In this document: positions 32,410 to 45,800 of the stretch, one piece after another
Layout: every line of letters starts with the position of its first letter
Numbering within the stretch: position 1 is the stretch's first letter
IMG/VR virus record: IMGVR_UViG_3300025030_000046
Coordinates: 75,240 to 139,239 of that record
Strand: one strand, 5' to 3'
Length of the DNA stretch: 64,000 nucleotides
From: a virus
Program-made: the position numbers and the translations under genes
Notes under the pieces: model-generated
Seen by the model: only the letters and a program-made list of their open reading frames with translations
What the model was told of the DNA's origin: nothing
Database searches by the model: none

Positions 32410-33093
32410 ATGGAAAAACTTAGATTATTAGCAAATCTACCTGTTTATGTTGATAAAATCCCTATATATTCTCCTACTCTTAAAAGCATTGCAGAAATAG
32501 GTAAAAAAGAATATTCGTTTTTTTTATCTAGCTGTATCATCACCAAAGATATATTAGTAGATAAAGATATGTTTCACGACATAAGTGATTTTGAAATATT
32601 AACTCATATGTGCCTTAAAAGTAATTTGTATCCAACATTTATTAATTCTTTATTTTATTTCACCAAGTTAGAATTTAGCATGGCAGAACTTAATAGTAAA
32701 GAGCTAGTTTTTATGTGCGATGACATTGAATTAAATAAAACTAATTATCACTCATTTATCGAAAATATAAAATATGTTAATAGATTAGAAGTTCAAGAAA
32801 CTAAAGAAATGGACGAATTTGATAGGCGTTGTGCAGAAGCAGAGAAAAAGATTCAAGAACATGCTGGTAAAGATGATCAGCCAGAGCTAGAAGATTTAAT
32901 TTCCGCTGTAGCTAATATGGATGGAAATGGTCTTAATATAATGAACATTTGGGGTCTAAATATCTATCAATTCTATGAACAATTACAAAGAGGTCAATTG
33001 AAAGAACAATATAGATTGGCTATGAAACAATTGTTAGCTGGAGCAAAACCAGAAGAAATAACAGTTGAATCATATTTCAAAACAATTAAATAA
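32410..33093 (+). CDS. hypothetical tail-region protein (YomV-like)
   Basis: IYSPTLKSI and IWGLNIYQFY motifs; position. Confidence 0.55.
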   Translation: MEKLRLLANLPVYVDKIPIYSPTLKSIAEIGKKEYSFFLSSCIITKDILVDKDMFHDISDFEILTHMCLKSNLYPTFINSLFYFTKLEFSMAELNSKELVFMCDDIELNKTNYHSFIENIKYVNRLEVQETKEMDEFDRRCAEAEKKIQEHAGKDDQPELEDLISAVANMDGNGLNIMNIWGLNIYQFYEQLQRGQLKEQYRLAMKQLLAGAKPEEITVESYFKTIK

Positions 33094-33117
33094 AATATAA
33101 AACAGGAGGTATTTAAC

Positions 33118-33906
33118 ATGGCACTCGGACAAAAACAGATCTGGGCTAAAGTTCTTGATTTTACAATTCAAGATTATACTACTAAGGCTGTTGTAGCACA
33201 GGTAAAATACGCCACAGATGCTAGTATATCTGAAGCGTATGAAAAACTAGAAATAAAAGGTGGAAGTGATAATCAGATTCAATATACAAATTATCATTCA
33301 CCAACAGCTAAGTTTTCTGCAAAATTACCATTGATAGATGACAATATAGTTGCAGCTAAAACAGGTGCTTCCAATGTAGTTGGAGCGCAGACAAATGCTT
33401 TTGATGACACTTTTACTGTAGATGCAACGGCTGGAACAATTACCTTACCAGTTACGGGCATTGTAAGTGGTACATTGAAAGTTTACAATGTTGATATTGA
33501 TGATAATCTAGGTACAGAAGTAACTGCGGTAGCTTCAGCACCAACATTGGAACAGTATTCTATTACTGGAAGTGTTCTTACTTTTAATACTGGTAAAAAG
33601 GGTACTAGAATGTTAGTTATTTGTGACTATACAACTGGAGCTACTGCTAGTGGAGTTAAAATGATAAGTGGTAAACTTCCAAAGCTTATTAGAATCACAG
33701 CTAAAACTAAAGTTGAAGATAAGTCTGGTAATATTGCTATTAAAACTATAATCATAGAAAAGGCTAAACCCGATCCAAATTTTGAATTCGCAACTAGCAC
33801 ATCTGCCGCAAGTTTGGCATTTGATTGTGAAGTATTTGGTTACACAAACGATGATGGAGATGATCAATTCTTCAATCTAGTAACAGACCCAGAACTTGAC
33901 GTATAA
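33118..33906 (+). CDS. major tail tube protein
   Basis: 262 aa, beta-rich, strong RBS, position. Confidence 0.65.
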   Translation: MALGQKQIWAKVLDFTIQDYTTKAVVAQVKYATDASISEAYEKLEIKGGSDNQIQYTNYHSPTAKFSAKLPLIDDNIVAAKTGASNVVGAQTNAFDDTFTVDATAGTITLPVTGIVSGTLKVYNVDIDDNLGTEVTAVASAPTLEQYSITGSVLTFNTGKKGTRMLVICDYTTGATASGVKMISGKLPKLIRITAKTKVEDKSGNIAIKTIIIEKAKPDPNFEFATSTSAASLAFDCEVFGYTNDDGDDQFFNLVTDPELDV

Positions 33907-33917
33907 GAGGTGATATT

Positions 33918-34109
33918 ATGACAAAATTTCTTGTTTATTGTCATCCAGCAGTTCCGAGTATAGGTATTAAAACTAATACGTGGTACTCGTTAGAAGAGTT
34001 GCAATTAAAGTATAGCTTAGAGCATATTAAGTGCTTTTTTCACCCTGCTAACTTCGGTTGGGAAGAACTTGAACCTGAAACAAAACCAATAGTAAAAACA
34101 TCAAAATAA
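33918..34109 (+). CDS. hypothetical protein
   Basis: GAGGTG RBS. Confidence 0.55.
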   Translation: MTKFLVYCHPAVPSIGIKTNTWYSLEELQLKYSLEHIKCFFHPANFGWEELEPETKPIVKTSK

Positions 34110-34353
34110 TCTAAAATATAAAATAGGGAAGTGTATAAAAATGATTACTTCCCTATTTTTAATTCTTATAAAATAATCTACGAATACAACGAGATTTCTT
34201 CTCGTTTCTATAAAATTCAAAACAATTTTAAATATTAATCAAACGAAGATTTTATCAAATTTTCAAGTTTTCAACACCTACAGCCACAAGGCTTTCGATT
34301 TTTTAACAAATTCAAAAACATAAACAAAAATATAAATAAAGGAGGTAATTAAA

Positions 34354-35247
34354 TTGAATCAATATCAAGAGTATAAAGGTCAAATATTAGGAGCAACAGA
34401 AGAAGGTTTTACAAGACAATTAAAATGTGGCGACGATGGAGTTTTACAGACTTCTATATCATCTGGAAACAACCTAATAGGTGCAACAATGACTCATGGA
34501 GACGTTCCTATGGTGTTAGTTGATACAACAAGAGAAACACCAATAGGATCAGTATTAGGTGCAAACGCAGTTTATATATCTCCTGTCGTAGATAGACCAG
34601 AACAATCAATACCCGATGGATATATGAGAATATGGGCATTATCAGATCAATCAGGAACATTGTATCTTGAAGAAAGTAATCAAAGTAGCTCTGGTTGGAC
34701 AACAACTGCTACCGTGGTTGTATCTGCTGGAGTGTCTAATATAATGACATGGACAAAACTAACCAAACGATATTCAAGGTGTAGATATGTAAATGGTGCT
34801 ACTCCACAAGCAAGTTTTATAATGCTACACTACATGCTTGGTGTTGGCGTTACTCCAATTAGAGTTGAAGATGGAGACATAGTAACGATAGGTACAAAGA
34901 ATGACACAGCAGTAATTGACCCTACAGCATCGGGTTCGGTGAATGCTAACTTAAAAGGTATAATGAAATCCATACAAGGAAGTGCAATAAACTCTTGTGG
35001 AATAGTAAATGTTACTACAGCAGGAACAAGGGTGCAATTACCAAATATTCCATGCAGAGAAGTTACTATAATTGCTAAGAGATTAACTACTGGATATATA
35101 TATGCAGGTAATAATGCGGTTTCTGCTGCAAGTTATGGAGTAGAGCTTGCAGCAAAAGAGAGTTTCACATTTGCTGTAGCTAATGCCAATCAGGTATATA
35201 TTGATGCTTCTGTAAGTGGGGAGGGGATTTCTTATGTCGCAATCTAG
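34354..35247 (+). CDS. putative virion appendage protein (beta-sandwich domains)
   Basis: 297 aa, AGGAGG RBS, two jelly-roll-like segments. Confidence 0.6.
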   Translation: MNQYQEYKGQILGATEEGFTRQLKCGDDGVLQTSISSGNNLIGATMTHGDVPMVLVDTTRETPIGSVLGANAVYISPVVDRPEQSIPDGYMRIWALSDQSGTLYLEESNQSSSGWTTTATVVVSAGVSNIMTWTKLTKRYSRCRYVNGATPQASFIMLHYMLGVGVTPIRVEDGDIVTIGTKNDTAVIDPTASGSVNANLKGIMKSIQGSAINSCGIVNVTTAGTRVQLPNIPCREVTIIAKRLTTGYIYAGNNAVSAASYGVELAAKESFTFAVANANQVYIDASVSGEGISYVAI

Positions 35248-36478
35248 ATATGATGCAAGCGGAAGTACTAAGACATTATTGGCTGATATTGCGAATAAGA
35301 TACTACCGTCGAATTATGTTATTCGAGACGGAATATTATTAGAAGATTTCTCGGTTATTAGTGGATGGACAGATTCTAGCAAGTTGTCATTAGACACCTC
35401 TATTGCACCATTTGGAAATGCATCTACTAAGTTTACAGAAACAACAGCAGGAGCAACGACAAGTATAGATAAAACTGTAAACTGGAATATAAAAAACTGT
35501 GAATCCATAGGAATTTGGTTTACTTGCGATACTGCAAATTTAAATACTCTTAGAATATATGTAAGTTCTATGGCAAATTTATCAAAATATTACACATTGT
35601 TATTTAATTCTGTGACTGGATATCCTTTTAAAACAGGATTAAATTACTTGAAAATACCAAGGACTGCATTTACTAACTCTGGTTCAGATAATTTTATAAA
35701 CACAATGGTAAAAATTAGATTCAATGTGGAATCAAAAGCAGGACAAAATGCAATTGTTAACTTTCATAAAATTGAATATAATCAAAAGTCTGTTCCAAGT
35801 GTAATGTTTAGCTTTGACGATGGGGAAAACACTGTATATAATAATATCTTTGAATATATGAGAGACAGGGGAGTAAAAGCGTCGGTAAATATTGTATCTG
35901 ACCTTATTGGTCAAGTTGGAAGATTTACAACTGTAATGTTAGACGATATGTATGACGCAGGGTGGGACATATGCCCTCATGCTAAAACGGCAGCGGATTA
36001 TAACGTTATAACAAACGAGCAAGTAATAGTAGATGCCACAACTGTAAGAGACTACATTTTGGGAAGAGGATATGTAAGAGGAGCGTATCATTGGGCATAC
36101 CCAAACGGCAGCGCCAATGATGCAGTAATAGCTACATTGCAAGGCTTAGGTGTTTTAACTGGAAGAGTATACAGCGCCCCAGGCTACATTTCGACTCCTA
36201 CCGATAACATGATGAAGCTTTTCTGCCAGCGAATGGAATCTGCTACCACAGGAGCTGGAATGATTGCAATGGTTAAGAATTGCATTAACTATGGCGGTAT
36301 GAGCGTAGAGTTTGCTGGTCATAGCGTTGTAACCTCTGTCCCATCAGGATTGCAAATACTAGACACTGAATTAAAAACTTTTATTGATTGGTTAGTTGCC
36401 AACAAGATAAATGTCGTAACAAAATCAGAATGGTATAACCAAAATGTTAACCCTAGATTTTTGGCGGCAAAAAGATAG
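35234..36478 (+). CDS. polysaccharide deacetylase (NodB-like) domain virion protein
   Basis: FSFDDG, GWDICPH, AYPNG motifs; ATG 35234 follows GAGGGG. Confidence 0.8.
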   Translation: MSQSRYDASGSTKTLLADIANKILPSNYVIRDGILLEDFSVISGWTDSSKLSLDTSIAPFGNASTKFTETTAGATTSIDKTVNWNIKNCESIGIWFTCDTANLNTLRIYVSSMANLSKYYTLLFNSVTGYPFKTGLNYLKIPRTAFTNSGSDNFINTMVKIRFNVESKAGQNAIVNFHKIEYNQKSVPSVMFSFDDGENTVYNNIFEYMRDRGVKASVNIVSDLIGQVGRFTTVMLDDMYDAGWDICPHAKTAADYNVITNEQVIVDATTVRDYILGRGYVRGAYHWAYPNGSANDAVIATLQGLGVLTGRVYSAPGYISTPTDNMMKLFCQRMESATTGAGMIAMVKNCINYGGMSVEFAGHSVVTSVPSGLQILDTELKTFIDWLVANKINVVTKSEWYNQNVNPRFLAAKR

Positions 36479-36588
36479 TTAGTACTCAATAGGACTAAAT
36501 TATTCACTAAACTAAAATATAAAATAGTTGTAATTCAATAACAAGCATGATACATTAAGAGTAATAATACATATTTACTTTTAGGGAG

Positions 36589-37581
36589 GTGTTGTGTTTG
36601 TTATTAAATCAAACAAATACAGAGATTATACTTACATTAGCAAATCATATTTGTTCGGAATTTCATGAAGTAAATCAAGAAAAACTAATTATGATTCTTT
36701 CTGATTATGATATCCAAGAAAAAATTACAGACGACGGTAAAGACCTTCAAGATAAAATCAAAATGTATCTGTCGGCTAAAAAATTAGAAGGACTAAGCAA
36801 AGAAACTTTGAGAGGTTATAAATTCGAACTTGGTAGATTTTGCAATGAAATTAAAAAGCCAGTTGAAGATATTATAACTTCGGATATAAGATTTTATCTT
36901 AGTTTATCAAGTGAATTGAAACTAAGCACACTAAGTTCAAAATTATCCACGCTTAAAAGTTTCTTTGTTTGGCTAACGGATAACGAAATTATACCCAAAG
37001 ATATAACTAGACAAATTAAGCCCCCTAAAAAAGAGAAAAGATTGGTTAAGGCTTTAAATATCGAAGAATTAGAGTTGCTGAGAGAATCTTGTGTAACTCT
37101 AAGAGAAAGAGCATTAGTTGAATTATTTTATGCCACTGGATGTAGGCTTTCTGAAATTGTTCAATTGAACCGTAGTAGTATAGACTTTTCTGATCAATCA
37201 GTTAAAGTTATTGGCAAAGGTAATAAGGAGAGAATTGTATATTTTGGATTTAAAGCTATTTACCACCTTAAAAAATATTTGATGTCCAGATTAGATCAAG
37301 ATCCTGCTCTATTTGTAACTGAGCGCAAACCATATAGACGAATGAAAAATCGGGCGATACAAAAACAATTTACAAAGATAGCGGAAAGAACTGGATTAGA
37401 TAAGAATATTCACCCACATATTATGAGACATACGCTGGCAACCCTATTGCTTAATAATGGAGCTGATATAGTTACTGTGCAAAATATTTTGGGACATGAG
37501 AATCCTGCAACTACTCAGATATATGCACAACTCACAGAACGGCGGAAGCATGAACAATATAAAAAATTCTTGGTTCAATGA
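36589..37581 (+). CDS. XerC/D-like tyrosine recombinase with intact catalytic set
   Basis: TGCRLSE, GKGNK, HPHIMRH, LGH, TTQIY. Confidence 0.92.
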   Translation: MLCLLLNQTNTEIILTLANHICSEFHEVNQEKLIMILSDYDIQEKITDDGKDLQDKIKMYLSAKKLEGLSKETLRGYKFELGRFCNEIKKPVEDIITSDIRFYLSLSSELKLSTLSSKLSTLKSFFVWLTDNEIIPKDITRQIKPPKKEKRLVKALNIEELELLRESCVTLRERALVELFYATGCRLSEIVQLNRSSIDFSDQSVKVIGKGNKERIVYFGFKAIYHLKKYLMSRLDQDPALFVTERKPYRRMKNRAIQKQFTKIAERTGLDKNIHPHIMRHTLATLLLNNGADIVTVQNILGHENPATTQIYAQLTERRKHEQYKKFLVQ

Positions 37582-37619
37582 AGTAAAATATAAAACAAAT
37601 AGAATAAAAGGAGAAATAT

Positions 37620-38168
37620 ATGAAAATATTTGAACAAATTAAACCTATAGAAATAAATTTTCAAGATGAAAAAATATTAATCAATCAAAATATAAAATTA
37701 CTTGATAAGCGAGTATTTGTAGATTTATGCGTTGATAATTATTTTATTAAAGATGAAGTTACTGGTGAAATAATTAGTACTTCTGATTTTGATAAAGACA
37801 CTACTTATTTTTATTGCATAATCAAGTATATGACTAATATGGAAATTCCAGACGATATGATACTGTCCGATCTTTATGACAATATCGTTGGCAGCGGATT
37901 GTATAATTTAATTTACGATGCGATACCTTATAACATAAAAAGTGACATTAATCGTAAAATCGAGGATTCTATTGATGATATTAAATATAAAATAGAAGAA
38001 AAAAATAGTATCAAAAATATAATAGTTGACGCTATTCAAGCTTTAATTTCAAAGATTCCTTCAGAAAAAGAACTTCAGAAAATTATAAAGAAAGCTAAGA
38101 AAGAATTCGAGAGCTTTGACCCAAATAAAATGCAAGCAGTTCAGGAAATGTTAAAGGTTGTAAAATAA
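37620..38168 (+). CDS. hypothetical protein, possible tail assembly chaperone
   Basis: 182 aa, AAGGAG RBS. Confidence 0.55.
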   Translation: MKIFEQIKPIEINFQDEKILINQNIKLLDKRVFVDLCVDNYFIKDEVTGEIISTSDFDKDTTYFYCIIKYMTNMEIPDDMILSDLYDNIVGSGLYNLIYDAIPYNIKSDINRKIEDSIDDIKYKIEEKNSIKNIIVDAIQALISKIPSEKELQKIIKKAKKEFESFDPNKMQAVQEMLKVVK

Positions 38169-38198
38169 TATTAAATTAAAACATATAGGAGGAATAAT

Positions 38199-38474
38199 AT
38201 GCCAGCATATTTCGGCTCGACCAACATTTTAACTTCTACCGCCAATCAGGAAATAATTCAGCAACATAAACCGTCAGGATGGACTATTACAATAGAAGCT
38301 TATAAATTTGAATTTAAAAGTTTGCAAGATTGCCATATTAAAATCAATGACGGTGCTTCAATATTTTTTGAAGCAGGATATGAATTTATAGTTGATATAT
38401 CAGATATATCAGTATATAAGTTTGTGATTGTTGAATCTGGAATACAATATAAGTATTTTGGTACTTATAGATAG
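38199..38474 (+). CDS. small beta-rich virion protein
   Basis: AGGAGG RBS. Confidence 0.55.
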   Translation: MPAYFGSTNILTSTANQEIIQQHKPSGWTITIEAYKFEFKSLQDCHIKINDGASIFFEAGYEFIVDISDISVYKFVIVESGIQYKYFGTYR

Positions 38475-38484
38475 GAGTGATAAA

Positions 38485-39915
38485 ATGAGAAAACAGGGAT
38501 TTTTTCAAGGAGATGCAAAAAACGATTATACAAATAAAGATTATGTTGATTCACAAGTTAATGTAGTTGCTTCTAGTATCAGCAATGTAAATACACAAGT
38601 GACAAGTCACAGTGCGCAATTGGCGGAAATTGCGTTTAACGTAAAACTTTTTGGGGCTAAAGGAGACGGTACAACTGACGATACAGCCGCTTTGCAAACA
38701 GCTATTAGCGCCGTAAAAACTGCTGGTGGGGGAACATTGTTATTCCCAAAAGGTACATACCTAATTAGTAATCAGTTATCTATATCATCTGTTACCCATA
38801 TGCATTGTATTGGCGCAAAAGATGGAAGTTCAATCATAAAACGACCTTCTGGTGCGGGGAATAATTTATTGGTAATTGATGGTTCAAACAAAGTAACAGT
38901 TGAAGGATTATATTTCTTGGGAACTGGTGATGTTGCATCAGATTTAGGCAACCTTCCACGAGGTATTATATTATCAAACTCCAATGATATTCGAATTATA
39001 GACAACTGGTTTTCTGACTTAGCAGGATTCGGAATCGAAATGGGCAACTCAAGTTATAACGTTCAGGTCAGAGGAAATACTCTTTGGAATATAGGCAATT
39101 CGTTAGCCCAAGATGGTGCGGGTGACGGTCATGCTATTTCGATGGCTTATTACTTGACGGATGGAACTACATCTATTATTGAACGTGTAGTGATAACCAA
39201 TAATTTAATACATGACTGCCGAGTTCGTGGAATTGAGGTTTGGACGAGTACTGGCGGTTCAGTAAAAGATGTTGTTATTTCTAATAATATAATAAAAAAT
39301 ACATCAAGAACTGGTATTGCAGTATTTCATGATGGAACTGGAACTATCAACAATATACTAATAGAAGGAAATTCTTTGGATTCGTGCGGTAATGCTAACT
39401 GTAATGGCTCAATTGAAATTTTAGGTGCAAATACAAGAGATGTTGTTATCAAAGGTAATTCTATCAAGAGTTCGGGTTCTGGGGGAATTGACTTAGATAG
39501 TTCCACTAAAGCAATTTTAATATCAGAAAATGTGATTAACTATGCAAGCTGGCGTGGGGTTTGTATACGTAGTACAACTTCATTAATTTCGGTTTTGGGT
39601 AATGTAATTCGAAATTGCGGCAATGAAGGTATTATTGTTGCTGCATCAAATTGTTTAATCAAAGGTAATATTTGCTTGGATAATGGTGTAGCTATAGCTA
39701 ATAATTACAATGGTATAAATATTGATGGTGGTATTAACTGCGTAGCAGAAGGTAATTTGTGTAAAAATGTAGATAGTGCTGGTAATCAACATTATGGCAT
39801 GCGTTTAGCTGGTAGTGGACATATTTGCGTAAATAATAATTGCGTAGGAAACTACACAGGAGCTATTACTGATGTTTCAACAAGCTCTACGTTAGCTAAC
39901 AATATTACTACATAA
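38485..39915 (+). CDS. pectate-lyase-like right-handed beta-helix (depolymerase/appendage) protein
   Basis: FNVKLFGAKGDGTTDDTAALQTAI...LFPKGTY followed by parallel beta-helix repeats; ATG 38485 follows AGGAG. Confidence 0.85.
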   Translation: MRKQGFFQGDAKNDYTNKDYVDSQVNVVASSISNVNTQVTSHSAQLAEIAFNVKLFGAKGDGTTDDTAALQTAISAVKTAGGGTLLFPKGTYLISNQLSISSVTHMHCIGAKDGSSIIKRPSGAGNNLLVIDGSNKVTVEGLYFLGTGDVASDLGNLPRGIILSNSNDIRIIDNWFSDLAGFGIEMGNSSYNVQVRGNTLWNIGNSLAQDGAGDGHAISMAYYLTDGTTSIIERVVITNNLIHDCRVRGIEVWTSTGGSVKDVVISNNIIKNTSRTGIAVFHDGTGTINNILIEGNSLDSCGNANCNGSIEILGANTRDVVIKGNSIKSSGSGGIDLDSSTKAILISENVINYASWRGVCIRSTTSLISVLGNVIRNCGNEGIIVAASNCLIKGNICLDNGVAIANNYNGINIDGGINCVAEGNLCKNVDSAGNQHYGMRLAGSGHICVNNNCVGNYTGAITDVSTSSTLANNITT

Positions 39916-39946
39916 TAGGACAAATATATACGTGGAAGTAGATAAA

Positions 39947-40102
39947 ATGATAAAGATATTAATAAGATGGACGATGTTTAAATTTACAAAAAAATTAACT
40001 GTTGATATATCCCAGCCACGAAGTTGTTTTCAATGTCTTCAATATCTTAATAGGGAATTTAATTGTGGAGATTGCTCGTTGCAGAAATATAATTCGCAAT
40101 AG
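39947..40102 (+). CDS. small Cys-motif cassette ORF (51 aa)
   Basis: Manual translation ...CFQC...CGDC...NSQ*; the stop codon lies inside a repeat site. Confidence 0.45.
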   Translation: MIKILIRWTMFKFTKKLTVDISQPRSCFQCLQYLNREFNCGDCSLQKYNSQ

Positions 40103-40171
40103 GACAAAAGTATGTACTAGTGTGTATTAATAAATATTAGTATACAATGATAAAATATGTTATAATTATTT

Positions 40172-40325
40172 TAGTAGGAAAATACGGTCAGCTGGTTTGT
40201 TAGGTAGTGCGCATATAAAGCAAACGAACTGATATGTACGTGATGTAGCTCAGTTGGTAGAGCGGGAGCCGCACGGGAGCCGCAAGCTCTGTGTCGTTGG
40301 TTCAAGTCCGACCTTCACCCTACTA
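40172..40325 (+). ncRNA. tRNA-like RNA (D arm and T arm intact, anticodon arm aberrant) inside a larger closing stem
   Basis: TAGCTCAGTTGGTAGAGC D arm; GTTGGTTCAAGTCCGAC T arm; 11-nt tandem duplication; TAGTAGG/CCTACTA end pairing; extended -10 at 40158-40166. Confidence 0.6.
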
Positions 40326-40390
40326 CAAATATACACTAATGTGACAAAAGTCATAAAATGTAATATAATTACCTGTAGGGGGTGGTTATA

Positions 40391-40555
40391 TTGGCTGTTA
40401 AAAGGCAAAACATAACGCTTGACCCTGAAGTGTTCGAAAAGTTTTGTACTATTGCAGGACGTAAGGGCATTAAGATCTCAACGTGGGTTAATCTAAAAAT
40501 GAAAGAGTTTATTGAGGAAGAGGAATCGAAAGTAACCAAGAAGGGGCACTCGTAA
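40391..40555 (+). CDS. ribbon-helix-helix (CopG-like) protein, 54 aa
   Basis: MAVKRQNITLDPEVFEKF...KISTWVN; GGGGGTG RBS; hairpin terminator overlaps the stop. Confidence 0.6.
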   Translation: MAVKRQNITLDPEVFEKFCTIAGRKGIKISTWVNLKMKEFIEEEESKVTKKGHS

Positions 40556-40581
40556 TGAGTGCTCTTTCTAAAAATAGCTAA

Positions 40582-40836
40582 ATGGAGGCTATAACAATGC
40601 ATGACCATAGATTTAAAGGGCAAAGAAAAGATACGGGAGAATGGGTTCGTGGAGAGTTAATAACATCAAATTGTCAAATTTTTATTAAAACATCACCGAT
40701 TATTGACACACAAATATCATGCAATGACGGAATGATGATTTCGGTTTTTGTATATGAAGTAATATGGGATACTGTAGAACCATATATTAAACCCGAAGAA
40801 GAAATCAAAAAATCAGGAGGGTGTTACGTAGCTTAA
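40582..40836 (+). CDS. YopX-like N-terminal domain protein
   Basis: HRFKGQRKDTGEWVRGEL and EVIWDTV motifs. Confidence 0.55.
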   Translation: MEAITMHDHRFKGQRKDTGEWVRGELITSNCQIFIKTSPIIDTQISCNDGMMISVFVYEVIWDTVEPYIKPEEEIKKSGGCYVA

Positions 40837-40926
40837 TACGCAATATACTAATCCATACTAATCTCTACAAGTCACTATTAATGCGACTTTGTGGATATGT
40901 AAGATAAACGGACTAAATTATTCACC

Positions 40927-40954
40927 AAGGGCTTACAATTGTAGGCTCTTTTTT
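40927..40954 (+). terminator. rho-independent terminator
   Basis: AAGGGCTTAC-AATT-GTAGGCTCTT plus T tract. Confidence 0.7.
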
Positions 40955-41050
40955 ATATTTAATGAAATGTCTGTTTTATGGAAATTCTGTAATTTGAAAC
41001 CCTTTGGAGAGTAAGGTTACAATTTTTACAATTTTGAAAGTGGTGATAAA

Positions 41051-41527
41051 ATGCCAGAATTTAAAAGTATTGCTGATTTAAATATATATCTTAAAAAGCA
41101 AATAATAGATGTGCTTAATAAGGAAGTTGCAACAGCAGTAAAGGACGAAATAGTAATGGCTGTAGACGATGTTGTATATGGTGCAGGAGATCCTAAAGAA
41201 TATATAAGGCGTGGATTATCCCCATCCTCAAATGGGCTAGGTGGTAAATCACAAATGCATCACACAGTAACTACGGATGGAACTTTAACAGTTACTGATA
41301 ATGCTGATTTTAACCATGATTTTGCAAATAACCATGATGGGTATGGATCAGTTGATTTATCTAAAAGTTTAACTGAAAATATTGAATATGGATATGGAAG
41401 CAAATCATTATGGTACAACAAGCCAAGACCATTTATAGCAAAAGCTAAAGAGAATCTTAAAAGTAATAAATACCACATAGAGAGAATGCGTGAAGGGCTA
41501 ATGGCTAGGGGAATTAAGGTTATTTAA
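41051..41527 (+). CDS. HK97 gp10-like tail completion/neck protein
   Basis: IEYG...KPRPFI motif. Confidence 0.6.
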   Translation: MPEFKSIADLNIYLKKQIIDVLNKEVATAVKDEIVMAVDDVVYGAGDPKEYIRRGLSPSSNGLGGKSQMHHTVTTDGTLTVTDNADFNHDFANNHDGYGSVDLSKSLTENIEYGYGSKSLWYNKPRPFIAKAKENLKSNKYHIERMREGLMARGIKVI

Positions 41528-41672
41528 ATAAAATTGTGCTTTGATTACCTTAATTAGTGGTTGAATAAACCATCAGTAACCTTAATTAGAATAGACCCCA
41601 AAAAGAGGTCTATTCCTGTTTTCGGAAATTATTAAATTTATATAGATATAAAATATAAAAGGCGGTGGGAAA

Positions 41673-42704
41673 ATGGGTCGTTCTACAGTTTATAATAATA
41701 TATGTACTCCTGAACTATATAATCAAGTTTGCCAAGATAATAAAGACTTGTTGGATGAATTTGTTGAGTACTTAAAAAGTACGGATAAATCGCCAAAAAC
41801 TATTGATAGCTATATTGGAGATATTAAAATTTGTTTTATTTGGAATCTACAGAGCAATAAAAATAAAGAATTTACCGATTTTAATAAACGAGATATTATG
41901 AAATATCAAAACTATTTAATGAATGAGCTAAATGTTGGCTCTAGCAGAGTTAGAAGATTGAAAGCTTCCATTAGTAGTATGTCTAATTTTATTGAATCTG
42001 TTCTAGATGAGGATTTTCCAAAATTCAAAAATATAGTAAACAAAATTCCTGCTCCGATTAAGCAAACGGTAAGGTTAAAAACTGTGATAACCGAAGAACA
42101 ATTGCAGAGTTTATTCGATTACTTAATAGAAAATAAGAAATATCAGCAAGCTTGTGTTTTAGCATTAGCAGTTGCTTCTGGAGCAAGAAAATCTGAGCTT
42201 CTAAGATTTAAAGTAAGTTATTTTAAAGATGAATATATTAAGTATGGAGCATTATATAAAACTCCAGAACTAGTAAAAACAAAAGGTAGGAGTTCAAAAG
42301 GCAAGCTTATCTATAAGTGGACGTTAGTAAGCAAATTTAAACCTTATTTTGACTTATGGATGGAAGAGCGTGAAAAATTAGGAATAGATTCTGATGAATT
42401 ATTTATGGTGACAAGAAAAGGCGTTTTAAAGTCTATGGATATTACAACATTAGATAGTTGGGCAATAACATTCTCTAAAATACTAGAGGTAGATTTTTAT
42501 TGGCATTCATTGCGACACTTCTTCACTACATCTCTTTGTAAAGCAAACATCCCTGCTGAAATTATAAAAGATATTGTTGGATGGGAATCTGTGACAATGA
42601 TAGCGACTTACAATGATACGGAAGTTGATGAAGAAATAGGTAAGTATTTTGACGAAAATGGTGTTAAGGAAGTTGAAAAGAAAAGCTTAACTGATTTAAA
42701 ATAA
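41673..42704 (+). CDS. tyrosine recombinase (SPbeta YomM-like position before tape measure)
   Basis: SGARKSE, KGR, HSLRH, VGW, IATY. Confidence 0.88.
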   Translation: MGRSTVYNNICTPELYNQVCQDNKDLLDEFVEYLKSTDKSPKTIDSYIGDIKICFIWNLQSNKNKEFTDFNKRDIMKYQNYLMNELNVGSSRVRRLKASISSMSNFIESVLDEDFPKFKNIVNKIPAPIKQTVRLKTVITEEQLQSLFDYLIENKKYQQACVLALAVASGARKSELLRFKVSYFKDEYIKYGALYKTPELVKTKGRSSKGKLIYKWTLVSKFKPYFDLWMEEREKLGIDSDELFMVTRKGVLKSMDITTLDSWAITFSKILEVDFYWHSLRHFFTTSLCKANIPAEIIKDIVGWESVTMIATYNDTEVDEEIGKYFDENGVKEVEKKSLTDLK

Positions 42705-42846
42705 AACCCTTATTTTAACCAAAATCTAGCCTTAGAGCCTCAACAGTTCTAGGGCTTTATAATCTTCATTTTTGAGTTCATGTGATGTGAATTGAAAAGT
42801 GGAGATTATTTTTTTATGAAAATTTATTGAAAGGAGAGTGAATTAA

Positions 42847-45800
42847 ATGGCAGACAATCTCGATATAATTATTAATGCGAAACTAAATACAACTCAAACA
42901 ACTCAAACCGCCAGAAAACAAATAAAGCAAGTTGAAGCAGAAATAAATAAAACCCCAATGCAGCTACGTATTGAGTCAAGTACTGGAGTATTAAAAGCGC
43001 AAGCGGTTCAAGCTACTAAAGAATATAAAGCAATGTATTCAAACATTATTCGTGAACATGAAGGAATGCAAAAAGCAATATCTAAAACAGAATCTAACAC
43101 CAGAAATAGAATCCAACAAATAGAAAAAACACAATCTTCTGCTCAGAATAAAAACCTAGAACAACAATATGAGCAAAAACAAAAACTAATTCGCTTAGAG
43201 TTGGAGCAACAAGCCACAGCACAAAAAAGACTTGAAACTTTAAGATTGGAAGCTCAGGAATATATAAAGATAACTGCTGAAAAACTTAAAGGGTTATCTA
43301 CTAAATATAGTTATGGTAATCAATCCACATCTCAACAAATGCAAAAAGAATTAAATAATGGTATGCTTAATTTTAAGTCTATTGACAGTATCCCTGCAAA
43401 ATTACAGGTCTGGAAACAACAGATATCACAAATAGAAAATGAATTGAAAGCTAGCCATCAAAAAAATATAAACTTACTGAATGAGCAGATTGCAAAAGAG
43501 CAACAATCTGCGAGTAAGAAATTAACCAATGCTAAACTAATAGAGCAAGCACAGGGTAAGCAGGCTAATTTAATTGATGAGGGAATAAGATTAAGAAGGC
43601 TCGAAGGCGAACAACAGTCCTCATTATTGAGAAATCAAATGCAACAACAACAAGCAGAGAGACAAAGAACTTTTGAATTAGGACGTCAGATTGCTTTGTT
43701 TAAAGAACAAAAAGCTATCCAAATGCAAAATTTACAATCAACATATGGTAGCTCTTACAATAGTCCCAACGTAAGATCTCAGGTTTCGGGAGTTCAAAGC
43801 AGTATAGCAAACTTAAATGCGGGCAACTTTCATGAACAATCTGAACGGATAAATACTGATATAGGTCATATTCGTGCTAATTTAAACGAAGCGAGAGCTG
43901 CATCTAATAGTTTTGCAAATGACTTATTCCATAATGCCTATAAAATGTTACAGTGGGCTGCTGTTGGAACTGCTATATTCGGTACATGGAGGGCATTACA
44001 AGATGGTGTTCAATATATAACACAATTAGACACTGCACTTAACGAAATTAGAATAGTAACTGGAAAAACTCAATTAGAGGTAGAAAAACTTGCATCTAGC
44101 TATAATAATTTAGCAAAAGAAATGAGTGTAACTACAACAGAAATTGCTTCGACAGCCGTTAGTTTATACAGACAGGGTTTGTCGGAAGATAACATAAATG
44201 AACGTATGCAAGCAATTATAAAATATGCTAAGATATCGGGAATAAGCTTAAAAGAAGCTGATACTATTATTACAGCAAGTGCAAATGGAACGAAGGCGAG
44301 CGTTAATGAAATAATAGATGTATTTAGTTATTTAGGAGATGCTACGGCGACTGGAGCCGATGAGATAGGAAAAGCATTTCAAAGAAGTGCATCTGTAGCC
44401 TCTATAGCAGGAGTTGATTATAAAAAATTAGCATCTTATATTGCGGTAGTGTCTAGTACTACGAGAGTATCTGCTGAAACTATTGGTAATTCCATGCGAA
44501 GTTTGATGATACGATACCAAGCTATTAAAGAAAATGGATTTAACGCCGAAGATGCAACAAATATCAATCAAGTGACAAAAGCATTGGAGGACGTTAGTAA
44601 ACAAACAGGGTTTTCTATTAGTGCTATTGATAAAAGTAGCGGTATGCTTAGAAATTATACAGATGTACTTGATGATTTATCTAAAGTTTGGGATGATCTT
44701 AATCCTAAACAAAAAGCATATTTACAAACTGCGTTAGCGGGAAATTATCAGGGAGATAAATTCGCTGCCCTGATGGAGAACTACACGAGATCTATTGCAT
44801 TGTATGAGGGGTCATTAGTTTCAGCAGGAACGGCACAGGAAAAATTTAATATTTGGCAAGAAGGAACTCAGTCAAAACTCGATGGATTAAAAGCAGTATG
44901 GGAAGGCTTGACAAAGGCAGTATTAAATTCAGGGTTTTTTAAAGCAGTTATCAGTGGAGTAACAGGTATATTAGATGGTTTAAGCACATTGACTGGTCAA
45001 CTTTCATTGGCAGTATTTTCATTTACATTGCTTACAATAGCGGCTAAAGCATTCACAACTCAAATAACCGCTGCTTCTTTAGCAATTAAAGGATTTGTTG
45101 CTTCTGTACCAGTAATAGGTTGGATTGCTTTGGCTATTTCAGCTTTAATACCAGTAGTTCTTGGTTTCGCTAGTGCATCTAAACGGGCTAGAGAAGAGCA
45201 AGAGAAATTAAGTAAACAAACACTTGAAGAAGTTCAAACAAGTGTAAATAAATTAAATATAGATGAACAAAAAAGACGAAAATTAGATGAGTTAGTTAAG
45301 TCTTATGACGATTTAAAGAAAAGTTCTAAAGGGACTAAAGAAGAAGAAGATACGCTACATAGTTTACAAGTTAAAATGGTAGCATTGTATCCTAATCTTG
45401 CGGATGGAATTGATAGTGTTGGAGATGCCTATACTAATAATATCGAAAAAATAAGGAATTTCACTAAAGAACAAAAGAGTGCATATATTCAAGGGCTAGA
45501 TCAACAAAAACAGATTTTAGGCTTTAAGATGTCTGACTTTAAAATACAAGAATCTTCCTTGATACAGAAAAAAGCAACTATGCTACCAACCAAAAATAAA
45601 ATTTTAGACAGTTATGGTAATTTAAACAAGACTAGTTTTTCGGAAAATGAATTAAAAGATGTGGCTTTAGCATTAGGGTATAAAAGTGATTTCTGGAGTA
45701 CTGCCGATAGTAAGCTAATAAAGGAGCTTGGCGGAGATTATAATATTAAGACTATTAAAATGCAAGGTTATGGTAACGATCAAAAAACTTTAAACAAAGA

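Follow-up and report, generated by a model that had tools for sequence, protein, structure and literature searches.

Background

The surface-degrading enzymes of phages that attack capsulated or biofilm-forming bacteria set the host range of these phages, and the precise movement of such domains from one phage to another is an old question, to which the usual answer is recombination at conserved motifs. In modular tailspikes and fibres an exchangeable enzymatic domain follows a conserved N-terminal anchor, and conserved DNA motifs flank the part that binds the receptor (PMC10408124, as far as the available part of the study goes). In flexible 'metagenomic islands', according to the accessible portion of a second study (PMC7468147), unrelated or diverged variants, pectate-lyase-type host-recognition genes included, coexist in one sample on a core of at least 99% identity. 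The Rin shufflon of Bifidobacterium prophages, in the part of its description at hand (Mavrich et al. 2018, PMC6109161), has a XerD-like recombinase without an arm-binding domain beside a receptor-binding gene with a constant N-terminal part and variable C-terminal parts, and 11-bp rix sites, rare elsewhere in the genome, at the unit boundaries. Rin is the closest described system to the locus treated here, which has its right end at position 40,981 of a 64,000-nucleotide stretch of phage DNA (the window), the final 64 kb of the 139,239-base IMG/VR virus record IMGVR_UViG_3300025030_000046 (29% G+C, CheckV completeness 75%). The record is that of a large uncultured phage, and the locus sits in its late region; two enzyme genes ('slots') flank a 2.1-kb platform with the recombinase gene int1, and eight short sites are spread over the whole (Table 1).

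Integrons combine a tyrosine recombinase, IntI, with attI and attC sites; unrelated cassettes in the same direction are joined at a fixed core nucleotide, and their positions in the array vary. Sites of the dif type have 11-bp arms and serve dimer resolution, and the pdif modules of Acinetobacter plasmids, whose orientation alternates, employ host XerC/XerD.

The present locus was compared with these systems with the help of a variant haplotype, L098, a metagenome contig found by a scan with the repeat motif and read here in reverse complement (v = 6329 minus the L098 position). On the partial account available (PMC6109161), it is like Rin in the Xer-type enzyme beside receptor-binding genes, the constant N-terminal part and the short boundary sites that are rare elsewhere. 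Rin, however, is there described as inverting silent cassettes stored in its own genome, whereas here the sites are direct and nothing is found on the other strand or in store; the variation lies between genomes, two slots are expressed, and small non-fibre cargo travels along. The original prediction, made by a model from the letters of the window, had called the locus shufflon-like, a label that falls: all sites are direct and on the plus strand, the genome has neither gene pieces on the minus strand nor silent cassettes in reserve, 35000-41000 holds no minus-strand open reading frame (ORF) of more than 91 amino acids (aa), no inverted repeat pair matches the sites, and L098 differs from the window by replacement and relocation, not by inversion. 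One shufflon feature is present, leaders 1 and 2 each being joined to two different domains (between LLA and D or E, and between QLA and E or D, respectively).

As in integrons, a tyrosine recombinase stands beside arrays of same-direction cassettes with fixed-base joints and cassettes in differing positions, the unrelated cassettes being joined at one position (seven contexts at GGAC). The likeness to an integron with sites other than attC, also proposed from the window, does not extend to membership of that class: the recombinase is of another family, attC-like folds were not found, and a sigma-70-like promoter of its own precedes a gene in at least one cassette. For int1 the NCBIfam integron integrase models gave 105 bits where the cut-off is 265, and 69.9 bits where it is 435; five of seven single-strand DNA folds (the site 7-8 region on both strands, and sites 1, 3 and 4) were no better than shuffles, and the folds at site 2 (z -2.1) and site 5 (z -3.2) are local dyads with a short stem of 5-7 pairs. 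The locus is also unlike integrons in that int1 is not IntI, the first cassette is fused in frame to a leader, some cassettes have promoters of their own, and arrays stand on both sides of the platform. With Xer/dif and pdif systems it has in common the Xer-type enzyme, modules bounded by sites, a site directly upstream of the recombinase gene and, at site 3, a putative short core with a 6-bp spacer, but neither of those systems swaps protein domains in frame.

Modular tailspikes likewise have a constant anchor, a swapped domain and short flanking conserved sequences, one of which doubles as a terminator (PMC10408124, available part), and in the locus a deacetylase or a BNR propeller stands behind leader 1 and a beta-helix or a BNR propeller behind leader 2. 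Their motifs are 20-95 bp long, are thought to work by homologous recombination and, in that same part of the study, have no associated recombinase, whereas here the constant stretches at the joints measure 8-16 bp and the two genes have a recombinase between them. Metagenomic islands also have a near-identical core, variant islands and several variants coexisting in a sample, but their description, in its accessible portion, is at population level and defines no joint sites or dedicated enzyme (PMC7468147). No recombinase-associated exchange of tail-fibre or tailspike cassettes was found among the titles and abstracts listed by literature searches, which is not proof of its absence. We infer that the locus belongs to a known kind, the recombinase-associated diversification of phage receptor-binding proteins, with int1 as the presumed agent; it is set apart by an exchange of cassettes that takes place between genomes and involves direct repeats, by having two slots that are both expressed, by the in-frame leaders and by the small cargo that travels along.

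Two forms of the locus

In our reading, held with about even confidence, the locus is a hypervariable pair of tailspike slots for surface-polysaccharide enzymes, grouped around a small recombinase platform in a large phage related to SPbeta. Backbone and platform are the same in the natural strains, which differ in their enzyme domains and in the placement of the cargo; the joints fall at the same nucleotides.

The beginning of L098 (v1-126) corresponds to 35161-35286 with one mismatch, up to and including leader 1, and is followed by 1344 nt of unrelated DNA. In slot 1 the leader MSQSRYDASGSTKTLLA is kept and is read in frame into a 463-aa propeller of the BNR/Sortilin type (Sortilin-Vps10 48.8 bits, cut-off 33). 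After this enzyme L098 is again like the window (about 85%), from precisely GGACAAAAGT (site 5) onward, and the order from there is a 119-aa Cys-rich ORF, the site 6 promoter, the ribbon-helix-helix (RHH)-like gene (84%) and a 72-aa ORF; the spacer from site 7 to site 8 is 90% identical to that of the window. The platform (36489-38627) is joined at the 16-mer GGACTAAATTATTCAC and shows 6 mismatches in 2139 positions, two of them at the extreme edges. In slot 2, ...SHSAQLA continues in frame into 1095 nt of unrelated DNA, the resulting 412-aa ORF carrying a second BNR/Asp-box propeller with its TAG stop within ACTAGGACAACATTATTCACC. The terminator region (40910-40981) then returns at 97%, and beyond 40981 the likeness to the window is weak.

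Thus both enzyme domains, deacetylase and beta-helix in the window and two BNR-type propellers in L098, are replaced in frame exactly at sites 1 and 3, as had been predicted, and the comparison bears out the accompanying claim for small cargo, whose units are gained, lost and relocated at or next to other sites. The cargo block (site 5 to site 8) stands after slot 2 in the window, and after slot 1, before int1, in L098. The cargo common to both is 84-90% identical, against the near-invariant 2.1-kb platform (99.8%), and the step from about 90% at the cargo end to 99.8% falls exactly on the 16-mer.

The sites coincide with the joints between the two forms, in agreement with their postulated role as module boundaries. 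Seven different left contexts meet GGAC at the same base, namely the ends of the deacetylase, the beta-helix, the Cys ORF and the cargo in the window, and those of the slot-1 enzyme (X), the slot-2 enzyme (Y) and the cargo in L098. Every 3' joint lies directly before GGAC, and the 5' joints follow TTGGCKGA. Among some ten breakpoints, five are inside sites (1, 2, 3, 5 and 8), and two more precede a site, site 7 by 5 nt and site 6 by 10 nt.

The L098 joint upstream of int1 is composed of the left flank of window site 8, the 16-mer and the right flank of window site 2. This has the form of an excised ring and would suit a single 4.4-kb integrative island (36492-40925), in which int1, the tailspike and the cargo had entered between the deacetylase gene and its terminator and the 16-mers were attL and attR. 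An exact 16-nt direct repeat (19 nt with one mismatch) does flank a segment that starts with the integrase gene, and the terminator to the right of the second copy would suit the end of the deacetylase gene. In L098, however, the segment bounded by the 16-mers consists of the platform and one enzyme only, with the cargo outside, so that one fixed island does not fit both forms; no contig has an empty site (deacetylase, 16-mer, terminator), and the in-frame swaps at sites 1 and 3 are left unexplained. Because of the position of the L098 cargo, such an island is improbable.

Logan contigs of four runs were placed on 34300-42800, the uncovered parts of X4 and X5 not being used as evidence. Run X1, the probable source, contained the window form only. 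In run X3, another sample from this study, window-form contigs had depths of 20.5 (deacetylase) and 22.1 (beta-helix to RHH) and variant-joint contigs depths of 26-31, while the backbone (depth 56) and the platform (depth 54-59) were single contigs with single-nucleotide polymorphisms (SNPs) at full depth. Both coexisting forms therefore share one backbone and one platform allele, and since the single platform contig carries one SNP set for both, they differ only by cassettes. The X3 contig graph branches at 36492-36521 (the 16-mer) and at 38595-38624 (site 3). Run X5, from a different study, contained pieces of both forms with the same joints. L098 could in principle be a chimera across the shared 2.1-kb platform; the depths agree with its phasing.

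Junction sites

All eight sites were present at or within a few bases of the predicted positions (35273, 36484, 38614, 39910, 40094, 40334, 40838 and 40902). The first site of each block does lie in frame where a short leader meets the deacetylase or beta-helix region (LLA, QLA), and both blocks end in the same 16-mer, whose exact copies, at 36492 and 40910, are the only two in the window and in the full 139,239-base record. The stop codons said to fall inside sites do so: TAA (39913-15) of the beta-helix gene in site 4, and TAG (40100-02) of the Cys mini-ORF in site 5. At site 1 an X5 contig diverges, like L098, after 35286; at site 2 identity to the variant starts at GGAC and an X3 contig overlap node begins at 36492; at site 3 variant identity stops at 38624-38627, next to the X3 branch; and at site 8 an X5 contig also switches exactly at 40910. 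Of a dif-like site, with two inverted arms and a 6-8-bp spacer, site 3 may be an instance, being a perfect 7-6-7 dyad; the other sites have only a loose CRYAATA left arm and GG..A. Sites 6 and 7, both on the conserved flank of their breakpoints, look like a promoter and a plain conserved spacer and not like crossover sites.

The word AATAGGAC[AT]AA occurs three times in 139 kb (both strands), always on the plus strand and within 3.6 kb of this locus. AATAGGAC itself has four matches in the window against 2.02 expected (reached by 14 of 100 shuffles), the 16-mer with up to three mismatches has three against 1.46 (17 of 100 shuffles) and ATTGGCKGA two against 0.77 (19 of 100). Such a test from the window's words alone is weak evidence for the sites, and since each count lies within the shuffle range, they could be thought chance resemblances of short AT-rich words with no role. 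That is hardly credible, because the comparison with L098 puts breakpoints in them: five of about ten independent breakpoints lie inside sites that cover about 2.5% of the stretch, two of these in genes and in frame. Rough arithmetic gives about 1e-6, a figure that is less extreme if both sets favour gene ends, and L098 already contradicts the idea.

Directly to the right of the first 16-mer lies a copy of an intergenic motif, (A)TTCAATAAA-CTAAAATATAAAATAG, which has 30 copies with at most two mismatches in the 139 kb (window examples at 14463, 33090, 34111 and 36512). Its strand follows that of the genes, the 20 minus copies all lying to the left of record position 88178 and the 10 plus copies all to the right of 89702, and the copies directly precede ribosome-binding sites or TTGACA/TATAAT pairs.

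The recombinase int1

An intact Xer-like recombinase between the two blocks had been predicted and is confirmed by a score of 229.9 bits (cut-off 220) against a XerA-type family and by six catalytic residues (R, K, H-x-x-R, H and Y), all of which align with those of XerD (1a0p). The protein has the Pfam Phage_integrase and SAM-like N-domains, that is, the Xer-type architecture of a core-binding and a catalytic domain without an arm-binding domain. Its true start may lie a few codons downstream of 36589.

Homologues of int1 were collected from 63 loci (31-67% best-segment identity). They lie inside the tail-fibre modules of other phages, between tail-fibre and lysis genes, and this position is recurrent: homologues with 44-58% identity stand between tail-fibre or tailspike and holin/endolysin genes in L083 (5932-6927), L027 (8001-8876) and L030 (7708-8918). 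The first of these, Terrisporobacter phage TPELB_ph1, encodes another, larger integrase as well. Just upstream of the int1 homologue, L027 and L030 have a small RHH-like gene, and in L027 a ParA-like gene is nearby. Homologues of the 57-aa RHH-like gene of the locus adjoin int1 homologues in 4 of the 63 related loci.

The 139-kb record holds four recombinases in total. Besides int1 and int2 (below) there is a third tyrosine recombinase at about 13168-13668 (minus strand) of the window, whose 27.3 bits barely pass the Pfam threshold, and a large serine recombinase, encoded by an open frame of 601 aa (G000:C1:5598-6047, minus strand, of the record), presumably a counterpart of SPbeta SprA. By analogy with SPbeta the serine enzyme is likely the lysogeny integrase, which would leave int1 without an obvious housekeeping job. 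Being an intact Xer-type enzyme, placed between the slots, probably not needed for lysogeny and of a family that uses short core sites, int1 is the natural candidate for making the swap joints; on these grounds we consider its involvement about evenly balanced.

Formation of the joints

Each slot begins with a short constant leader (17 aa ending in LLA in slot 1; 46 aa ending in QLA in slot 2), from which the frame continues into an exchangeable enzyme domain; further small cassettes can follow, and the 16-mer is its end. The platform between the slots comprises the 16-mer, int1, two small genes and leader 2. In the mechanism that we propose, the 3' joints, at which an enzyme end or cargo meets GGAC, would be made by int1 through site-specific recombination on short cores of the form [CRYAATA]-[GGACWA]-[arm]. 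The two gene orders could then be two openings or reinsertions of one ring (platform, enzyme and cargo), or the result of unequal exchange between 16-mer copies; the L098 joint upstream of int1 is the joint to be expected of such a ring. The 5' in-frame swaps would come about when co-infecting genomes exchange DNA within their identical leaders, by homologous recombination or by a site-specific reaction of like sites, and the differing spacers of 5' and 3' sites would stop simple cassette deletion. Receptor-degrading domains, and with them host range, would be exchanged and virion assembly left untouched.

Ordinary modular exchange is a credible alternative, although we give it less than an even chance. 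The locus would then be a flexible island of a stable phage genome, homologous recombination in long identical stretches on either side (backbone, platform and terminator) would replace whole slot contents, and the short motifs would be the ends of conserved regulatory or anchor sequences (virion-attachment leader, promoters, terminator); int1 would have another role, such as multimer resolution, or be a self-contained module with no relation to the swaps, as in Clostridia phages. Identity in the flanks is 99-100% across lengths of hundreds to thousands of bases. In natural phage populations, gene variants are described that coexist on a near-identical core, and conserved motifs around tailspike receptor-binding domains have been proposed as recombination hotspots (PMC7468147 and PMC10408124, respectively, in the parts available). 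Site 6 is promoter-like, the sub-cassette joints follow a -10 box and a hairpin, and the phages in which int1 homologues stand between tail-fibre and lysis genes yielded no sites of this kind.

The 5' joints are open to the same explanation. P0004, a 412-aa protein encoded on a 26.7-kb contig, is deacetylase-bearing, 57% identical and begins MGIQTTYNWGKTNADLADMSNKL; a leader and a LAD motif thus exist in a more distant phage, the leader having diverged together with the domain. As LA[DE] is kept in this homologue despite its diverged leader, a protein-level constraint is possible, and the 5' in-frame joints may simply mark the end of a virion-anchor peptide, with exchange in identical leaders.

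Plain homologous recombination has difficulty, however, with the 3' joints, because seven unrelated left contexts meet at one GGAC base, the cargo is relocated, and identity rises from 90% to 99.8% at the 16-mer instead of somewhere within the 2.1-kb homologous platform. To move the cargo between slots a joint is needed at whose left edge the partners have just GGAC(A)A in common. The motif, moreover, is confined to this locus in the genome.

Several observations weigh against int1 as the maker of the joints and against the sites as its targets. Sites 1 to 8 had been presented as related, but the 5' sites (TTGGCKGA) and the 3' sites (GGACWA...) have just GG...A in common and do not form one family, so that 5' x 3' recombination is an unlikely way for a single enzyme cassette to be excised. 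Likeness among the left arms is loose (3 to 7 of 7 positions against CGCAATA), and sites 4 and 5 could not be upheld as diverged copies of the 16-mer, there being 32 GGAC-anchored words with at least 10 of 16 matches against 46 expected, which is not above shuffles. The 16-mer also overlaps the left part of the genome-wide intergenic motif. Variation unrelated to the sites, which the original prediction had named as telling against it, was not seen at seven of the ten breakpoints, but the other three (40179, 40574 and 40981) lie at no listed site; two sub-cassette swaps end right after a promoter -10 box and right after a hairpin, as in ordinary phage mosaicism, and the right end of the locus (40981), like that of a joint skipping int2, coincides with a genome-wide 18-bp dyad distinct from the sites. 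The long identical flanks (backbone and platform) would permit plain homologous recombination of whole slot contents. A single variant haplotype was recovered, and leader 2 was found in just 2 proteins of 5.8 billion. Upstream of int1 homologues with at least 50% identity GGAC occurred in 7 of 22 cases without a common context, and no shared site or GGAC motif was found near int1 homologues in other phages. No circle, deletion product or rare joint was found among the assembled contigs, which drop rare forms; rings and deletions are therefore neither visible nor excluded in them.

Extended to all its parts, the proposal that int1 makes the joints would describe a phage-borne 'tailspike integron' with int1 as its dedicated cassette recombinase, which as a joint claim is doubtful. 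Two in-frame leader sites would dock enzyme-domain cassettes and GGAC-core sites would close each of them; the unlike 5' and 3' spacers would make exchange during co-infection directional, a natural recombinase-mediated cassette exchange without cassette loss; int1 would also gather small regulatory genes and RNAs behind the enzymes; and related Xer-type recombinases in the tail modules of many Clostridia-type phages would do the same job.

As material for the old question of domain movement the locus offers defined joints of 8-16 bp with a candidate enzyme among them, and one sample contains both of its natural forms, whose backbone is identical. If int1 is responsible, the locus would represent a natural in-frame cassette-exchange device, a model for retargeting phages, and would provide a function for the Xer-type recombinases that many Firmicutes phages have in their tail modules. 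Should int1 not be responsible, what is left is a clear case of a flexible dual-tailspike island with breakpoints known to the base.

Genes and cargo

The features of the locus are collected in Table 1. The first cargo unit had been described as a Cys mini-ORF, and a Cys-rich ORF of 51 aa is indeed present. The tRNA-like unit stood in part: it scores 40.7 bits with the Rfam tRNA model (gathering score 29), but ARAGORN reports no tRNA. The element has good D and T arms, an 11-nt tandem duplication (GGGAGCCGCA[C/A]) at the expected position of the anticodon loop and a TATAAT-type box upstream; as a whole it folds no better than shuffles. As for the postulated pair of an RHH and a YopX-like gene, ORFs of 57 and 84 aa exist, but no Pfam or NCBIfam family was found for either and the two labels are unconfirmed. 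The short hairpin proposed as a further unit was not borne out, its folding being no better than that of shuffles. Derivation of the 91-aa platform protein from the end of the upstream structural protein was ruled out (E 4.2).

Table 1. Coordinates (positions in the window) of the features of the two-slot locus; 'variant' is haplotype L098
Feature	Position	Strand	Remarks
Structural gene, 297 aa, phrog_16458 (no assigned function)	34354..35247	+	Backbone common to both haplotypes
Slot-1 gene: 17-aa leader MSQSRYDASGSTKTLLA and polysaccharide deacetylase-bearing region	35234..36478	+	Polysacc_deac_1 E 8.9e-13
Site 1, in-frame 5' junction (between LLA and D)	35273..35293	+	Window/variant identity stops after 35286 (TTGGCTGA)
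Site 2 (c1), CTCAATA and 16-mer GGACTAAATTATTCAC (36492-36507)	36484..36510	+	Left edge of near-invariant platform
Genome-wide intergenic motif copy (TTCAATAAA-CTAAAATATAAAATAG type)	36503..36527	+	Directly right of 16-mer, upstream of int1
int1, intact Xer-type tyrosine recombinase	36589..37581	+	Phage_integrase 3e-40
Two platform genes without known function, 182 aa and 91 aa	37620..38474	+	99.8% conserved between haplotypes
Slot-2 gene: 46-aa fibre-like leader (...SHSAQLA) and right-handed beta-helix/pectate-lyase-like tailspike domain	38485..39915	+	Tail spike phrog_2234, 1.6e-31
Site 3, in-frame 5' junction (between QLA and E)	38614..38634	+	Perfect 7-6-7 dyad CGCAATT-GGCGGA-AATTGCG
Site 4, CATAATA then GGACAAATAT	39910..39927	+	Holds beta-helix gene stop; whole segment missing from variant
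Cys-rich 51-aa mini-ORF cassette (unit 39918-40101)	39947..40102	+	Missing from variant
Site 5, CGCAATA then GGACAAAAGTATGTAC	40094..40117	+	Left edge of cargo block; variant similarity resumes at GGAC (40102)
tRNA-like element	40239..40320	+	119-aa Cys-rich ORF in its place in variant
Site 6	40334..40369	+	Overlaps sigma-70-like promoter (GTGACA-17-TATAAT, 11/12) before RHH-like gene; breakpoint 10 nt upstream (40324)
57-aa RHH-looking gene	40382..40555	+	84% DNA identity in variant
84-aa ORF	40582..40836	+	Unrelated 72-aa Cys-rich ORF in variant
Site 7 (CGCAATATACTAAT)	40838..40852	+	On conserved side of breakpoint 40833
Site 8 (c2), second 16-mer copy (40910-40925)	40902..40928	+	Two different left contexts meet GGAC here in variant
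Terminator-like hairpin and T-run closing the locus	40927..40950	+	Then genome-wide dyad site 40962-40979, where variant identity ends

Searches for relatives

The metagenome scan that yielded L098 gave nine matches. The other eight were set aside as chance matches: seven had no BLAST similarity to the window, and the eighth, L100, had just a 37-nt match overlapping the pattern. The 16-mer alone had 11 matches in viral contigs, all unrelated by context, and a 19-mer of leader 2 had three in genome contigs, again all unrelated. Phage GenBank records gave no megablast match to 33000-43000. Relatives of the upstream structural gene were found at 10 loci in viral contigs (44-64%), in other gene orders and without int1, and the HK97-gp10-like gene downstream of the locus had one relative there; none was found in viral contigs for the deacetylase, the beta-helix, the 91-aa gene or the leader-1 DNA, nor in genome contigs for the 182-aa gene.

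Among the contig joints, those from 36528-30 to 37576 were rejected as a deletion of int1, as they involve other copies of the intergenic motif (side 22, one contig being matched twice). Joints from 35286 to 40089 and from 38624 to 40910 are not direct, for L098 has 1344 and 1095 nt, respectively, between their sides.

Neighbouring genes

On its 5' side the locus is preceded by head and tail genes and then by the 297-aa structural gene, whose 3' end overlaps the start of the slot-1 gene; an X3 contig over 34300-35236 (depth 56) serves both forms. On the 3' side follow the HK97-gp10-like gene, int2, specifying a tyrosine recombinase (41673-42704), and a gene for a 1768-aa tape-measure-like protein. 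Members of the int2 family with about 30% identity occur in SPbeta-type Bacillus phages, at a distance of a few kb on the upstream side of yomI.

In X3 an abundant contig, of depth 67.9, passes from 41668 to 42700 and omits exactly the int2 ORF, its right side starting at the genome-wide 18-bp dyad site (42701). The int2 gene itself may be a presence/absence module. In two relatives, L017 (13309-16188) and L009 (11657-17506), the int2 homologue lies in an island just downstream of the conserved structural gene. These islands contain antirepressor-like and GIY-YIG-like genes and, in L017, a D5/primase-helicase-like gene of 475 aa, all named from their translations; this suggests a separate mobile island at this spot.

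Another contig of X3, which has depth 39.8 and lacks 3 nt at 37758, follows the 182-aa platform gene through its first half, up to 37798, and resumes at 41637, upstream of int2; it may represent a third, more distant arrangement.

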